NCBI GenBank assembly: GCA_001029715.1
Contig: CP011212.1
Location: forward strand, 398,936 to 462,935
Length of the DNA: 64,000 nucleotides
Direction of reading: 5' to 3'
Source of the DNA: a candidate division TM6 bacterium GW2011_GWF2_28_16
Lineage (GTDB): Bacteria; Patescibacteriota; Microgenomatia; UBA1400; PJMF01
Shown one piece after another: positions 853 through 46,764 of the stretch. The position numbers and the translations under genes are program-made. The notes beneath the pieces were generated by a model, which made no database searches, was not told where the DNA came from, and was given only the letters and a program-made list of their open reading frames with translations. How positions within the stretch are numbered: the stretch's first letter is position 1; every line of letters starts with the position of its first letter.

Positions 853-1992
853 ATGAGTAACACTACCCTTCTAATATTATGTTTGTTTTTGATTTCAATT
901 TTAGCGACTTTTTATTTTTTGCTAAAAAAACTTTTGTCAGAAAAAAATTCAGAGCAATCTAGTGAACAACTGGAAGATATGGTTCACAAAGTTTTTGGCA
1001 TGGCTTCTAATGAAATTGCTATTCAAAGTAAAGGTATCCTGCAAGGTGAGAAAGATTTAATCAAGAATGATCTCTCTAATAAACAAGCTGCGATTGAAAA
1101 GATGATAAAAGATTTACGTCAAGAAATGGGTGACCAACAAAGAGAAATTCGTGCTATTGAAAAAGATCAGATTGATAAAATTAGTGGAGTTAAAACAGCT
1201 GTTGAAGAGCATCGCCAATTAACCAAGGAACTAAAAATTTCTACAGAGCAACTGGCCAAAGTTTTATCCAATAATCAGACTCGTGGAGCCTGGGGTGAAC
1301 GCATTATTGAAGATTTGTTGCAGGCCAATGGCTTGCAAGAAGGCATTCATTATCTACGTCAAGCTAAATTGGGCGCTTCAGAAATGAAGCCAGATATTAC
1401 CCTGCTTTTACCAGACCATCGCAACGTGGCAGTTGACGTTAAATTCCCGTATCAAGAAGTTCAAAAGATGTCGATGACTGAGGATCAGAGTGAAAAACAA
1501 AGTCATGTTTTGCAATTTAAAAGAGATCTTAAAATTAAAGTAGACAAAGTAGCTACCTATATTTCTCCAGAAAACGATACTTTAGATTACGCAATTATGT
1601 TTGTGCCAAATGAAGCTCTGTTTTCCTTTATCAATCAAAAGTTCCCAGACGTTATTGATGAGGCTTTAGCTAAAAAAGTAATTATTTGTTCGCCTTTTAG
1701 TTTCTTAATTGTGGCTCGCACAGTGATGGAAAGTTATCGTAACTTTATGGTGGGTAAAAAAATCAAACAAGTTATCAAACACATTGATGCTTTTGCAGGA
1801 GAATGGTTAAAATTTGACGATGAATTTTCTAAGTTTGGACGTAGTATCGAAACTTTGCAAAAAAACTACGAAACTCTTTCAACCACGAGGAAAAGACAGA
1901 TGGAAAAGAAGATTCAAAAGATTGAACAGTATCGCGGTAGTTCAGTAGAATTATTGGAAGATGGTGAAAAAGTTAAACTTCTAGAAGATTAA
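853..1992 (+). CDS. rmuC: DNA recombination protein RmuC
   Basis: 379 aa with an N-terminal TM and a long coiled-coil, then the RmuC-type core (RGAWGERIIEDLL, ...VDVKFPYQ..., MFVPNEALF). Confidence 0.7.
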   Translation: MSNTTLLILCLFLISILATFYFLLKKLLSEKNSEQSSEQLEDMVHKVFGMASNEIAIQSKGILQGEKDLIKNDLSNKQAAIEKMIKDLRQEMGDQQREIRAIEKDQIDKISGVKTAVEEHRQLTKELKISTEQLAKVLSNNQTRGAWGERIIEDLLQANGLQEGIHYLRQAKLGASEMKPDITLLLPDHRNVAVDVKFPYQEVQKMSMTEDQSEKQSHVLQFKRDLKIKVDKVATYISPENDTLDYAIMFVPNEALFSFINQKFPDVIDEALAKKVIICSPFSFLIVARTVMESYRNFMVGKKIKQVIKHIDAFAGEWLKFDDEFSKFGRSIETLQKNYETLSTTRKRQMEKKIQKIEQYRGSSVELLEDGEKVKLLED

Positions 1993-3128
1993 TCGTTTAA
2001 ATATTTTTCAAAAAAGCTAAGATCTTTTTGGACAGCTTGATTCCAATTGGGTTGTAAATTGTGATTAGCGCCTGGATATTTGTAGAAGTCAATATTTATT
2101 ACTTCCTTTTTTACTTCTTCCGCACTTTGACTGGCATCTGCGTTTTGAGCGCTAGTTGTAGCTCTCAATTCATTTTCTAAATCTACTTTAGCCAAAAATT
2201 CTTCTGTCCAAGAAATTAAGGCTGAGTCATCAGCAGTGCCATGTTGGATTTGAATCGGTCCATTTAATTTGTCTAAATGTTTGGTCAGCGAAAAATCAAA
2301 AACATCGTAATCATCCTCAAAAAGTGAAACATATTTACGAGTCTCTTTACCCTCATCTCCATATTCGTCACTGAAATAAAGAATTGAATATGGGAAAGGC
2401 ACCAGAACTGGTGCCCAAAGAGTAGTAGGCAGATTGCTACCAAGAACTTCTAGAGTAGAGATTGCAATTTGTCCACCATTACTATGTCCCCAAATGCCGA
2501 TTTGACTTGTATCAACGCTAACTTTTTTAATTGTTAGTTCAGTAATTTGACTAAGATCTATTTCTGGAAATGTTTGAATTGTTTTAATGAGATCAACTGC
2601 ATTGACGACTTTAATAAATCTAGCTTCCCAAGTATCAGTTGGCTCGGGATCACTTTCACCAAAGCCAAGAAAATCTGGAGCTAAAGTGAGGTAGTCGTTT
2701 TCTGCAAAGACAGCAGCAACATTTTTAGTACCTTCTCCAGAGTAATATGTTTCTAGAGGAACATAACCTCTAATCATTATTATGGTTGGTTTTTTTGTGT
2801 TCTCATTATCTATTTTCAAATTAAGTGCACCGGAAATTTTTTTACCCTGACTTTGATAAGTAAAAAGTAGGGCATATGTTTGCGTGTCCAAATCTTTAGA
2901 GATAATTTTTTCAATTCTGATTGGTGATGATACTTTAAATTCTTGTTTGCTTAAATTTTCAAAAGAATATTTAAGCAGTGGCAATGGTTTTTCTGTTTTT
3001 ATTTGTTTAACAATACTTTTTGCCAGAGGAGTTGATTCATTTTTTAAATAAAAATAAGCGATTAAAAAAGAAAGACAGCTACTTATTATCAATAGTAAAC
3101 ATATGAAGATTATTTTTTTTGTTTTCAC
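1989..3128 (-). CDS. Membrane-anchored alpha/beta-hydrolase (S9 peptidase / dienelactone hydrolase-like)
   Basis: N-terminal TM helix; nucleophile elbow GHSNGG (GxSxG) with downstream acidic and His residues (HGTADD). 4-nt convergent overlap with rmuC. Confidence 0.6.
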   Translation of the reverse strand: MKTKKIIFICLLLIISSCLSFLIAYFYLKNESTPLAKSIVKQIKTEKPLPLLKYSFENLSKQEFKVSSPIRIEKIISKDLDTQTYALLFTYQSQGKKISGALNLKIDNENTKKPTIIMIRGYVPLETYYSGEGTKNVAAVFAENDYLTLAPDFLGFGESDPEPTDTWEARFIKVVNAVDLIKTIQTFPEIDLSQITELTIKKVSVDTSQIGIWGHSNGGQIAISTLEVLGSNLPTTLWAPVLVPFPYSILYFSDEYGDEGKETRKYVSLFEDDYDVFDFSLTKHLDKLNGPIQIQHGTADDSALISWTEEFLAKVDLENELRATTSAQNADASQSAEEVKKEVINIDFYKYPGANHNLQPNWNQAVQKDLSFFEKYLND

Positions 3129-3312
3129 TCAGCAAATTATAGCAGTCTTGCTAACTTTTCTTCAAAATTGATGCTTGCTAAAATACCAGATCATATTTAA
3201 AATCTTTCAACATGTCGTTAATTACAAATTACTCCCATTTTTTCTTGGTCATTTTGCGCAAGAACGTTGCGGGGTAATCTTGTTGCATTAAAACAGATAA
3301 AAAACAAGAACA

Positions 3313-3342
3313 AGCCCCGCCTTAAGAAGCGGGTTTTTTTGT
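3313..3342 (+). terminator. Intrinsic terminator-like hairpin (cccgc-ttaagaa-gcggg + U7), part of an attenuator-like element
   Basis: Seen directly: gccccgccttaagaagcgggttttttt. The upstream segment gcgggg...(cttgtt..aacaag)...ccccgc can form a mutually exclusive alternative helix. Confidence 0.4.
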
Positions 3343-3476
3343 ATTTTTGATCTTTAACATTAACTAAGGGCTACTTTAGTCTTCAATTATTTGAAAGTTA
3401 AGGTAACCCTTTGTGGCTAGAGCAAATCAGCGCTCTAGTTTCGAAGGGAAAATTTTTCATGGTGGAGGAGAAAACA

Positions 3477-3590
3477 ATGGCAATAGGCAAGGGTAAGCAA
3501 AAAAAGTCTTCCGAACATTTGCCGAGATGCCCCCTTTGTGGGGGAAAACACAGGGCAAAATATTGTCCAAGAAAGCAAAAACCCTCTTAA
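3477..3590 (+). CDS. Small basic zinc-knuckle-like peptide (37 aa), unannotated micro-gene
   Basis: Near-consensus SD GGAGGAG sits 6 nt upstream of the ATG. Product MAIGKGKQKKSSEHLPRCPLCGGKHRAKYCPRKQKPS carries C-x2-C-x3-H-x4-C. A tandem hairpin terminator follows. Below the ORF-track length cutoff. Confidence 0.45.
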   Translation: MAIGKGKQKKSSEHLPRCPLCGGKHRAKYCPRKQKPS

Positions 3591-3595
3591 CCAAA

Positions 3596-3692
3596 GCCTC
3601 CGGTCCAGTAATGGACCGGAGGCAACAACATTTATTTTGACCAGGATCCTTAATTTTTAAATATTTGAAATTTAAGAATCCTCGTTTTTTTT
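3596..3692 (+). terminator. Tandem terminator: perfect 12-bp GNRA-capped hairpin, then a second hairpin with a U8 tract
   Basis: First hairpin: gcctccggtcca-GUAA-tggaccggaggc. Second: aggatccttaa...ttaagaatcct (one mismatch) followed by tttttttt. Confidence 0.6.
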
Positions 3693-3754
3693 CTAGAGCT
3701 AGCGCAAAGCGCGCCAATCTTTGGAAAGAGGAAATCTTTTTGGGAGGGTCGTCG

Positions 3755-3811
3755 ATGAAGAAAGATAAGAAGAAGAAAAAAGGACATCGTAATAAAAAAG
3801 GCAACAAGTAG
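3755..3811 (+). CDS. 18-aa Lys-rich micro-ORF (MKKDKKKKKGHRNKKGNK); speculative
   Basis: SD-like GGGAGGG 6 nt upstream of the ATG. Followed by a perfect GC-rich hairpin ggtggcgcc-atttattt-ggcgccacc (3842-3867) with no U-tract. Confidence 0.2.
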   Translation: MKKDKKKKKGHRNKKGNK

Positions 3812-3934
3812 TCGCCTTTAGGTGTCCAACCCTCAATCTTTGGTGGCGCCATTTATTTGGCGCCACCAAAATCTTTCCCTTCCTATATTATCTAAAACCT
3901 CTTTTTCAAATTTCGGTTATAATAACTCTTACCT

Positions 3935-5356
3935 ATGCAAAGAACTCTCGTTATTGATTCCTTAGAAAAAGTTGGTCAAACTGTTCGCCTCTGTGGTTGG
4001 GTGGATAGCAAGCGTGATCACGGTAAAGTTACTTTCATTGATTTAAGAGATCGTACTGGCAAGATCCAGGCCGTTGGTATTGGTGGCAAATTGAGTGAGT
4101 TAAGCAATGAGTCAGTTGTTGAAATCACTGGACCAATCAATACTCGTGGCGAAAAAATGGTCAACCCAAATTTGCCAACTGGCTCCATAGAGATTTTTGT
4201 TGAAGATTATAAGGTTCTCAATAAGGCAGCTGAGCTACCAATTCTTGTGGAAGGTGATGGTCGTGATGTTAATGAAGAGATGCGTCTTAAGTATCGCTAT
4301 TTAGATTTGCGTCGTGAGAGAATGCAAAAAATTGTGCGCTTGCGCTCTAAATTTTATCAAGCTCTTCGTGAGCAATTAGAGAAAAAAGATTTTACCGAAG
4401 TTGAAACTCCAATGTTGACCAAATCAACTAAGGAAGGAGCTCGTGATTTCATCGTGCCTTCTCGTTTTAATCCTGGTAAATTTTATGCTCTTCCGCAAAG
4501 TCCTCAACAATATAAACAATTATTGATGACGGCTGGTGTTGAGAATTATTATCAATTTGCTCGTTGTATTCGCGATGAAGATTTACGTGCTGATCGCGGT
4601 TTTGAATTTACTCAGCTTGATCTCGAAATGAGTTTTGTGACTCAACAAGAAGTAATGGATAATGTCGAAGAAATTGTCAAAAATGCTGTCAAAAAAGTTG
4701 GCGCCAAACTCAAAGATGAAGTTTTTCCAGTTATTCCTTACAAAGAAGCAATTGAAAAATATGGTGCCGATAAATTTGATTTGCGCAGTGAGGAAGAAAA
4801 AAAAGAAAATGTTTTAGCTTTTGCTTGGGTGGTTAGTTTCCCATTCTTTAAAAAAGTTGATAAAAAAGACATTGCTGAAGTGCGCGATGGTAAGAGTGGT
4901 TGGACTTTCACTCATAATCCTTTTTCGAGTCCAATTCCAGAATCTATGGAAGATCATAAGAATGCTGAAAATATCGAAAATATTATTACCGCTCAGTATG
5001 ACTTGGTCTGTAATGGTTACGAAGCAGGTGGCGGCAGTATTAGAGCTCATGATCCAGAAGTTCTTAAAAAGACCTTTGAAATCATGGGTTATAGTGATCA
5101 GGAGATTGAAGCCAGTGTGGGCCATATGTTGGAAGCTTTTAAATTGGGCACTCCTCCCCATGGTGGAATTGCTTTAGGACTAGATCGCTTAGTAATGCTT
5201 TTGGCAGGAGAGAATTCACTCAAAGAAACCATTGCTTTCCCAATGAGTTCTTCTGGCAAGACCTCTATCATGGACGCACCAAGCGAAGTTTCTGATGAAC
5301 AACTCAAAGAGTTAGGTATTCTAATCGCTCCTAATTTAGCTACAATGAAAAAGTGA
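3935..5356 (+). CDS. aspS: Aspartyl-tRNA synthetase (short, archaeal/non-discriminating-type, 473 aa)
   Basis: Class II aaRS motifs present: QSPQQYKQLLM, FEFTQLDLEMSF, GGGSIRAHDPE, GTPPHGGIALGLDRLVMLL. N-terminal OB-fold anticodon-binding domain. Confidence 0.9.
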   Translation: MQRTLVIDSLEKVGQTVRLCGWVDSKRDHGKVTFIDLRDRTGKIQAVGIGGKLSELSNESVVEITGPINTRGEKMVNPNLPTGSIEIFVEDYKVLNKAAELPILVEGDGRDVNEEMRLKYRYLDLRRERMQKIVRLRSKFYQALREQLEKKDFTEVETPMLTKSTKEGARDFIVPSRFNPGKFYALPQSPQQYKQLLMTAGVENYYQFARCIRDEDLRADRGFEFTQLDLEMSFVTQQEVMDNVEEIVKNAVKKVGAKLKDEVFPVIPYKEAIEKYGADKFDLRSEEEKKENVLAFAWVVSFPFFKKVDKKDIAEVRDGKSGWTFTHNPFSSPIPESMEDHKNAENIENIITAQYDLVCNGYEAGGGSIRAHDPEVLKKTFEIMGYSDQEIEASVGHMLEAFKLGTPPHGGIALGLDRLVMLLAGENSLKETIAFPMSSSGKTSIMDAPSEVSDEQLKELGILIAPNLATMKK

Positions 5357-46560: not shown

Positions 46561-46741
46561 AATATTTTTATAAAATTACCGCTTGCGCTGATTCTCAATT
46601 CTTGCTACTTTAATTATTGCTGTGGAACATAGTGAAAATCTATGACTGTGCCGCAACGGTAATTCCTTTTTAAGGATTAGTCCGATCTTCAGCAAAAGAG
46701 AAATCTTGACGAGCATCGAGGCTGTATATTTTACTGTCGAT

Positions 46742-46764
46742 GCTCCCTAAAGGGGAGCTTTTTT
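46742..46764 (+). terminator. Intrinsic terminator (gctccc-taaa-gggagc + U6) preceded by a competing hairpin
   Basis: Seen directly. An upstream 9-bp hairpin gagcatcga...tcgatgctc (46711-46745) shares nucleotides with the terminator 5' arm. Confidence 0.45.

Follow-up and report, generated by a model that had tools for sequence, protein, structure and literature searches.

Introduction

Among the bacterial leaders in which a short open reading frame (ORF) overlaps competing RNA helices, the amino-acid attenuators trpL, pheL, leuL, hisL and thrL (Rfam RF00513, RF01859, RF00512) contain segments that pair as 1:2, 2:3 or 3:4, carry the leader stop codon in or at segment 2 and form an intrinsic terminator with a U-tract from segments 3 and 4. 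In a second group, acting on translation (ermC, ermB and cat) or on transcription (bmrCD, mef/msr and vmlR), a stalled ribosome frees the 2:3 pairing and segment 4 is released, without any need for a run of cognate amino-acid codons. Leaderless short ORFs have been documented as attenuators in mycobacteria, where the position of the ribosome on a polycysteine ORF, the first cistron of its transcript, remodels the RNA that controls the downstream gene (bioRxiv 10.1101/834739). Riboswitch expression platforms and T-box leaders, finally, set a terminator against an antiterminator ahead of a gene. Here we describe an element from a 64,000-nucleotide (nt) stretch of DNA of the candidate division TM6 bacterium GW2011_GWF2_28_16 (contig CP011212.1, positions 398,936 to 462,935 of the forward strand), which we call the window and whose own numbering is used throughout. 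The element, a plus-strand unit spanning 3175-3342, comprises a promoter, a 21-codon leader ORF and three mutually exclusive helices, and it is probably a ribosome-dependent (leader-peptide) transcription attenuator.

With the amino-acid leaders the element shares all the features listed above: the short ORF, the three alternative pairings, the location of the stop codon and the 3:4 terminator with its U-tract. It differs from them in that the leader has no regulatory codon run (the only repeat in the window is FF, and no residue is consistently repeated over 27 lineages), in that the ORF appears to be leaderless and not driven by a Shine-Dalgarno (SD) sequence, and in that no amino-acid biosynthetic operon lies downstream, where a zinc-knuckle ORF and an 18-residue ORF are followed by aspS, the gene of an aspartyl-tRNA synthetase (AspRS), with its own promoter. 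Most amino-acid biosynthesis is generally said to be missing from the host lineage. Amino-acid-specific attenuation was rejected because of the missing codon runs, and the best Rfam resemblances all stay below threshold (Phe_leader, 24.3 bits against a threshold of 55; Trp_leader, 20.8 against 41; Leu_leader, 16.2 against 50).

The erm-type leaders are matched in the 2:3 pairing that a stall would free, in the release of segment 4, in the dispensability of a cognate codon run and, among distant members of the family, in a segment 4 that, like that of ermC, includes the SD of the gene behind it. A long ORF starts 0-13 nt after the U-tract in about 14 of 24 such distant relatives, and region 4 (GGCGGG or GGAGG), followed by U6-7 and the AUG, sits at the SD position. 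This SD sequestration of the erm/cat type is absent from the window, where the next start codon lies 134 nt past the U-tract, so that only the transcriptional arm remains there. Unlike the erm-type leaders, the element has no known arrest motif, its ORF is apparently leaderless, and no resistance gene was found among the downstream proteins scanned: Pfam and PADLOC returned nothing for the ten proteins scanned with each (for PADLOC, eight distant downstream ORFs, the zinc-knuckle protein Zn37 and a 58-residue ORF of locus L003). The mycobacterial leaders resemble it in the leaderless first-cistron ORF and in the remodelling of a regulatory RNA by ribosome position; they differ in their Cys codon runs and in unmasking a ribosome-binding site, whereas the present element, from another phylum, ends in a canonical intrinsic terminator. 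No Cys occurs in the window leader peptide, and Cys makes up 1.2% of leader residues family-wide.

With riboswitch platforms and T-box leaders the element has in common the competition of terminator and antiterminator ahead of a gene, and the nearby aminoacyl-tRNA synthetase gene; it differs in having no aptamer, specifier loop, T-box sequence or Rfam match. At gathering thresholds Rfam finds only two tRNAs and an adenosylcobalamin (AdoCbl) riboswitch over the whole window, all outside the element, in agreement with the initial annotation, which had recognised no known aptamer consensus. Rfam 15 run over 3050-4000 at E<=10 gave no riboswitch or T-box except a spurious PreQ1 match (14.9 bits; threshold 39). 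A T-box or riboswitch serving aspS was rejected, since no model matches, a separate TATAAT stands about 11 nt ahead of the aspS start codon and two hairpins lie between the element and aspS; furthermore, aspS is usually divergent from the element. Having no codon run, no biosynthetic or resistance gene, no Cys tract and only sub-threshold Rfam scores, the element belongs to none of the families compared. It is an undescribed family in bacteria of the candidate phyla radiation (CPR, or Patescibacteria), with a mechanism of a known kind; a full-text literature search returned no paper on leader-peptide attenuation, or on leaderless translation or regulation, in Patescibacteria.

Results

Competing helices in the leader

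The interval first flagged covers regions 2 to 4 only; the promoter, the small ORF and region 1 all lie 5' of it (3175-3268). Each motif that the initial annotation had listed is present, namely GCGGGG (3269-3274), TAAT (3275-3278), CTTGTT (3280-3285), two copies of AACAAG (3303-3308 and 3309-3314), CCCCGCC (3315-3321), TTAAGAA (3322-3328), GCGGG (3329-3333) and T7 (3334-3340), and CCCCGC (3315-3320) is indeed able to pair either with the upstream GCGGGG (3269-3274) or with the downstream GCGGG (3329-3333), which is followed by U7.

Region 1 (AUUACUCCCA, 3228-3237, codons Asn6-His9) pairs with GGGGUAAU in region 2, and the resulting 1:2 helix encloses an apical hairpin (UUCUUGGU/GC-CAAGAA, 3242-3264; 77% paired) that holds the near-invariant block UUUUGCGCAAG. 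Region 2 (3268-3284), with an outer GCGGGGU (3269-3275) and an inner UCUUGUU (3278-3284), contains the leader stop codon and pairs with region 3 (3303-3320; inner AACAAGA, 3303-3309, outer GCCCCGC, 3314-3320) to form the antiterminator. The part of region 3 that pairs with region 4 is CCCGC (3316-3320), giving the terminator hairpin CCCGC-CUUAAGAA-GCGGG (3316-3333; -8.2 kcal/mol alone), which precedes the U7 tract (3334-3340); a simple scan calls this arrangement of CCCGC, 8 nt, GCGGG and a T run terminator-like. Helices 1:2, 2:3 and 3:4 are mutually exclusive, and the ORF overlaps segments 1 and 2.

The isolated 86-nt stretch folds into a long GCGGGG:CCCCGC hairpin of -23 kcal/mol, with a modest z-score of -2.1. 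The minimum free energy (MFE) structure of the full 131-nt leader, by contrast with this shorter piece, holds the 1:2 helix capped by hairpin 3242-3264, together with the terminator. When each conformer was enforced on the 131-nt leader, as the initial annotation had proposed, energies of -30.7 (terminator) and -30.4 kcal/mol (antiterminator) were obtained; the two are thus near-isoenergetic, and neither is overwhelmingly favoured. The region 2:region 3 duplex of the window beats 199 of 200 dinucleotide shuffles (p=0.005). As single-sequence folding statistics are modest, the case rests on comparative data.

Homologues of the element

An AspRS-anchored scan of species-representative genomes provided 80 loci of about 9 kb each. 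BLAST places the element in L001, L002, L004, L007, L008, L010 and L011, and also, inverted, in L003, and a metagenome pattern scan gave 110 stretches, of which four are true homologues (L139, L142, L149, L170) and the others were rejected as chance pairings of TTTGCGYAAR with a terminator. Groundwater metagenomes (SRR6482096, SRR1658471, ERZ28564294) hold sequences identical across the element region. Altogether 12 distinct sequences form a close clade that shares the -35 and -10 boxes, the invariant ATG, the ORF, the three helices and the U-tract.

Two covariance models were built, R1 on the 12 close sequences and R2 on 26 sequences. Eleven close homologues score 92-146 bits, and the E-values in related genomes run from 1e-15 to 1e-26. 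Weaker R1 matches (30-49 bits) appear in many more distant loci; R2 brings distant scores up to 30-78 bits and defines at least 22 distant Patescibacteria homologues, with no matches elsewhere in the ~9-kb loci. The dual-helix architecture that was to be sought in related loci is therefore found in 12 close sequences and at least 22 distant homologues, and the tally of R1 and R2 matches puts the family in about 30 of the 80 sampled species. Neither model detects a further copy in the 64-kb window, where the element is single; a minus-strand match at 3306-3427, considered as a second copy, was rejected as the reverse complement of the terminator.

Distant members lie almost always on the strand opposite to aspS, 0.05-0.8 kb from its start. 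Elements in loci L012 to L075 were noted to be single-copy and almost always back-to-back with the aspS promoter. Locus L061 holds two tandem cassettes, and L007 has, beside its intact copy, a second match (3107-3240) with the terminator and region 2-like strings but no ORF, which is probably a decayed copy of the element.

Covariation of the helices

Pairing was evaluated on the 12-sequence alignment A2, with slid-register pairings as controls. Helix 1:2 is paired in 91.7% of cells, with UA/CG exchanges in four sequences and CG/UA exchanges in three (controls, 41-53%); the outer part of helix 2:3 is paired in 94% of cells and contains two compensatory pairs with CG/GC changes (controls, 52-61%). 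The covariation score of the combined 2:3 structure exceeds those of 499 of 500 shuffles. Within the close clade the terminator stem is invariant, and strong conservation extends to its loop, CUUAAGA, and to the UUUUGCGCAAG block; among distant members the stem covaries. The region 3/region 4 variants are CCCGCC/GGCGGG, CCUCGC/GCGAGG, CCCUCC/GGAGGG, CCCCUUUC/GAAAGGGG and UCUCCC/GGGAGA, and for every region 3 variant region 2 bears the matching G-rich string and region 4 matches too. In L149, for instance, region 3 is CCCGCC, region 2 GGCAGG and region 4 GGCGGG, and L013, L033, L012 and L031 are alike. Nothing argues more strongly for selection on both pairings of region 3 than this three-way covariation of regions 2, 3 and 4.

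When the upstream segment was shuffled with its dinucleotides preserved, the 2:3 duplex came out significant (p<=0.05) in 31 of the 34 members analysed (mean z, -3.5), and the 1:2 duplex in 13 of 34, with about two expected. A U-tract occurs in every one of the 34. The proposal of mutually exclusive antiterminator and terminator helices has consequently held up, both being kept in the 12 close and at least 22 distant sequences.

Promoter and leader ORF

A sigma-70-like promoter precedes the leader. Its -35 hexamer TTGCTA (3175-3180; TTGCA or TTGACA at this place in homologues) and -10 hexamer TAAAAT (3198-3203) are separated by a 17-nt spacer and give a 9/12 match in a promoter scan. The -10 box ends 8 nt ahead of the AUG of the leader ORF (3212-3277; 21 codons, MSLITNYSHFFLVILRKNVAG), and hence the transcript is expected to be leaderless or to have a leader of 0-2 nt. 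In all 12 close-clade sequences, inspected by eye, a TATAAT or TAAAAT box ends 7-9 nt before the ATG, which is invariant in this clade (an automatic best-scoring pick chose another hexamer in L011 and L001), and in most family members a -10-like box ends 5-13 nt upstream of it. No SD precedes the leader ATG in the window, unlike those of both downstream micro-ORFs, and an SD-like motif is found at this place in just one of 34 family members.

An ATG-initiated ORF of 20-30 codons is present in 34/34 members (21-26 codons in the close clade); L026 also has a leader ORF, whose start falls just beyond the search range. Over the same span the +1 frame is open in 3/34 and the +2 frame in 7/34 members, the figure from a composition model being about 0.23 per sequence. 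Every member has its stop codon in region 2 or between regions 2 and 3; in the window the TAA (3275-3277) is the "taa" of the flagged gcgggg-taat and stands inside the 5' arm of the antiterminator. The frame of the GCGRGG motif differs between clades, being AUG CGA GGU in those of L010, L008, L007 and L149 and GCG GGG UAA in the window, and the ORF is kept all the same. These facts point to an ORF that is translated, leaderless or nearly so, and whose extent would count for more than its exact peptide sequence. Across the family, peptides show early positions rich in N/Q/Y, then a hydrophobic run, then R/K. Asn, Gln and Tyr each account for 10% of residues at codons 2-8 against 1-3% later, a bias expected where the codons form an A/C-rich region 1 that complements a G/U-rich region 2, and the hydrophobic run followed by R/K is what a U-rich/A-rich apical hairpin would encode.

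The initial annotation had likened the structures both to transcription attenuators and to riboswitch expression platforms. Attenuation is retained; the platform analogy is not, given the conserved ORF, region 1 and the lack of an Rfam aptamer. It is the conserved, apparently leaderless ORF together with the 1:2 pairing that argues for a ribosome-dependent leader-peptide attenuator rather than a riboswitch platform.

Proposed mechanism and simulations

We propose that transcription begins at, or no more than 2 nt from, the AUG at 3212 and gives a leaderless mRNA, on which a 70S ribosome would translate the 21-codon ORF while RNA polymerase makes regions 2 to 4. A ribosome that reaches the stop codon (3275-3277) would cover region 2 and leave region 3 free to pair with region 4, and the CCCGC/GCGGG-U7 terminator would then end transcription after about 130 nt (OFF). 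In an RNA on which no ribosome is loaded, region 1 would pair first with region 2, and the terminator would likewise be favoured. A ribosome that slows or stalls before about two thirds of the ORF have been read would instead mask region 1 and spare region 2, which could capture region 3 (GCGGGGU:GCCCCGC plus UCUUGUU:AACAAGA); with the terminator blocked, polymerase would read through into a structured 5' untranslated region (UTR) and the gene of a 37-residue zinc-knuckle protein (ON). Where region 4 doubles as the SD of the following gene, as in many distant members, the switch would control not only transcription but also translation. The inducing signal would most likely be a general slowing of translation, which is our best guess because no single amino acid has a run of codons.

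This scheme was simulated by masking a 30-nt ribosome footprint and refolding the RNA. In the window, an A-site at codons 3-15 gives the antiterminator, and one at codon 18 or later, or at the stop, gives the terminator. Transcripts truncated before region 4 represent the kinetically relevant moment and are a more appropriate test than the full-length equilibrium. On these, a stalled ribosome permits 2:3 in 34/34 members, and region 3 stays free in 28/34 when the ribosome is at the stop.

Several points weigh against an attenuator of this kind. Helices, ORF, promoter spacing and conservation can be read from the sequences, and from them we predict where transcription starts, that the ORF is translated, that transcription ends at U7 and how the ON/OFF logic runs. 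The leader lacks a regulatory codon run, and what lies downstream is not biosynthetic. With full-length leaders at equilibrium, only 21/34 members have the antiterminator as MFE structure under a stalled ribosome, and 22 of 34 truncated free RNAs already adopt 2:3 at equilibrium, so that the step from no ribosome to termination would depend on kinetics, with 1:2 forming first. Helix 1:2 is also statistically weaker than 2:3 (mean z, -1.2), and the terminator of the window, a stem of 5 bp with a loop of 8 nt, is weak. Members of the close clade do not count as independent sequences, and alignments fitted to a model are biased to the modelled structure. Conservation of the peptide (..F.xI/V.ILRK) could be a by-product of RNA constraints or could reflect a role of the peptide itself.

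Alternative explanations

This last possibility leads to the alternative that survives best, although we consider it unlikely: an independent micro-gene, in which the leaderless 21-residue hydrophobic/basic peptide would be functional, the U7 hairpin would be its terminator and the long hairpin a stabiliser of its 3' UTR. The universal presence of the ORF (34/34) would be expected of such a gene, many close-clade changes are synonymous (TAC/TAT, CAT/CAC, TTT/TTC, CGC/CGT, AAG/AAA), an [IL][IL]RK motif recurs in L025 with different codons, and the element is self-contained in either orientation (L003). The peptide sequence is nevertheless poorly conserved over the family, its C-terminus shifts frame relative to the conserved RNA motif, and its hydrophobic stretch, about 8-10 residues, falls short of the length of a membrane helix. 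Moreover, a micro-gene leaves unexplained the complementarity of region 2 to the 5' strand of the terminator (31/34), the covariation of regions 2, 3 and 4 and the use of region 4 as the SD of the next gene.

An obligatory ORF and an adjacent-gene SD in region 4 are equally unaccounted for if the unit is a trans-acting small RNA of about 130 nt, possibly dual-function, which ends at U7 and in which the alternative helices are mere internal structure. The unit does come with a promoter and a terminator of its own, occurs once in the window and keeps its position beside aspS in many species, and attenuator-derived small RNAs are known, for instance rnTrpL in Sinorhizobium (PMC7968998). No target complementarity is evident, no dedicated examination having been made, and such an activity is compatible with the attenuator as an added role, not as its replacement. 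We regard a small RNA in place of an attenuator as quite unlikely.

In a riboswitch-type attenuator, responding to a ligand, a protein or a tRNA, the 1:2 stem and its apical hairpin would be the sensor and the ORF incidental. The near-invariance of the UUUUGCGCAAG block in the close clade, synonymous sites included, the unusual conservation of the terminator loop CUUAAGAA and the proximity of an aminoacyl-tRNA synthetase gene speak for it. The putative sensor is not conserved in distant members, although the ORF and the three helices are; its apical part, at about 23 nt, is very small for an aptamer; no riboswitch or T-box family of Rfam was found at E<=10, the spurious PreQ1 match aside; and the chance of an open frame in 34/34 members is negligible. 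A riboswitch-type sensor is thus very unlikely. Highly improbable, lastly, is a hydrophobic peptide gene of the type I toxin kind whose mRNA is structured: a small hydrophobic/basic peptide is indeed encoded on a highly structured transcript, but neither a promoter nor a gene for an antisense RNA is evident, the peptides fall short of typical type I toxins in both length and hydrophobicity, PADLOC matched none of the ten proteins scanned, and the element is single-copy and syntenic, not mobile.

Downstream genes and 5' UTR

The gene that the proposed attenuator would probably regulate encodes a basic CCHC zinc-knuckle microprotein of 37 residues (3477-3590, plus strand; C-x2-C-G-x2-H-x4-C-P). 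Its read-through 5' UTR (3343-3476) contains the strong SD GGAGGAG and a second conserved hairpin (3407-3448), CCCUUUG-UGG-CUAGAGC...GCUCUAG-UUU-CGAAGGG, whose 16 pairs, predicted by RNAalifold from 12 homologues, include 9 with compensatory changes, and which has no Rfam match. A 5' UTR of about 130 nt after the U-tract is common to 10 of the 12 close-clade loci. From the terminator to 3477 the promoter scan of the window detected no plus-strand promoter-like site; L021 has no attenuator, and there this UTR stands behind a promoter of its own (TTGACA-16-TATAAT). We infer that the zinc-knuckle gene of the window is transcribed by read-through of the attenuator. The hairpin is present also in L021 and in L006, both without attenuator, and may be an autoregulatory site for the zinc-knuckle protein.

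A CCHC zinc-knuckle ORF follows the element in 7 of the 12 close-clade loci (the window, L001, L004, L007, L008, L011 and L142); L002, L170 and L010 have the same 5' UTR motif and then a different or degenerate small ORF. Homologues in related metagenome-assembled genomes (MAGs) are 30-50 residues long. The zinc-knuckle ORFs match no Pfam family at threshold and show weak similarity to the zinc knuckles of eIF3g, Nanos, retroviral NC and bL32m. In L003 (2581-2907, minus strand) the promoter-leader-terminator unit is inverted relative to the window and precedes a 58-residue acidic ORF and an S9 hydrolase gene, from which it appears that the element behaves as a discrete module.

Downstream genes of the distant members are hypervariable and unannotated. 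Four of them share a "MSPAQ..." small-protein family. Some of the distant downstream ORFs have a DGH[HN]R-type motif (L061, L017), with DGHHS in L046; the motif looks to us ParB-like, which is our assumption.

Genomic setting

The guanine-cytosine content of the window is low (31-37%), and its closest relatives are MAGs labelled Microgenomates, Pacebacteria or Parcubacteria, all of them Patescibacteria like this uncultured, ultra-small bacterium itself. The element sits in an 806-nt gap between an S9/alpha-beta-hydrolase gene (1989-3128, minus strand) and aspS, which encodes an archaeal-type AspRS (3935-5356, plus strand). The hydrolase gene starts with a GTG that lies 7 nt past a TG-extended TATAAT box with a -35 of TTGAAG (3128-3165, minus strand), and aspS, without an SD, starts about 11 nt past a TATAAT box of its own (3917-3937, plus strand). 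Leaderless or near-leaderless mRNAs may therefore be common in this organism, as the starts of these two genes suggest.

The gap contains, besides the zinc-knuckle ORF, an 18-residue Lys-rich micro-ORF (MKKDKKKKKGHRNKKGNK, 3756-3811, plus strand), which is preceded by the strong SD GGGAGGG and flanked by hairpins; L142 has an identical copy, and that of L011 differs at two positions (a GTG start and K-E at position 4). We take its product to be reminiscent of the tiny basic ribosome-associated peptides of the bL37/bS22 kind. One long, perfect, GC-rich hairpin follows each micro-ORF ahead of aspS (3596-3623 and 3839-3870). Both have poor plus-strand U-tracts, and 3596-3623 scores as a minus-strand terminator; they may be stabilisers or bidirectional terminators that separate the micro-ORFs from aspS. 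Elsewhere in the window, the AdoCbl (cobalamin) riboswitch aptamer lies at 46597-46756 (plus strand; 55.6 bits, above the Rfam gathering threshold).

Discussion

A wider reading, which we hold only as a tentative possibility, is that the element founds a Patescibacteria-wide, single-copy, leaderless-upstream-ORF regulator that would report ribosome progress, lie near aspS and drive lineage-specific cargo genes. Ribosome progress would here stand for stress in translation or in amino-acid supply in an organism that scavenges amino acids; the element would almost always stand within 0.05-0.8 kb on the upstream side of aspS, in most cases back-to-back with the aspS promoter; and the cargo would comprise the zinc-knuckle microproteins, the S9 peptidase of L003 and the ORFs with a DGH[HN]R-type motif. 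In a stronger and speculative version, the element would sense the charging of Asn-tRNA or Asp-tRNA, dependent on the adjacent archaeal-type AspRS, which may be non-discriminating. Asp is absent from leader positions 2-8, and Asn occurs there in just 16 of 27 lineages, so that a link to AspRS stays speculative.

Gene regulation in Patescibacteria is largely unstudied; a recent perspective on the group is available (PMC11665869). If the proposed attenuator is real, it would provide a concrete ribosome-sensing switch in CPR bacteria, together with sequence evidence for leaderless initiation in their regulation, and the R2 model could be run over all CPR genomes to define the family and its otherwise unannotated cargo genes. 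It would also mean that leader-peptide attenuation is not limited to amino-acid biosynthesis or antibiotic-resistance operons.

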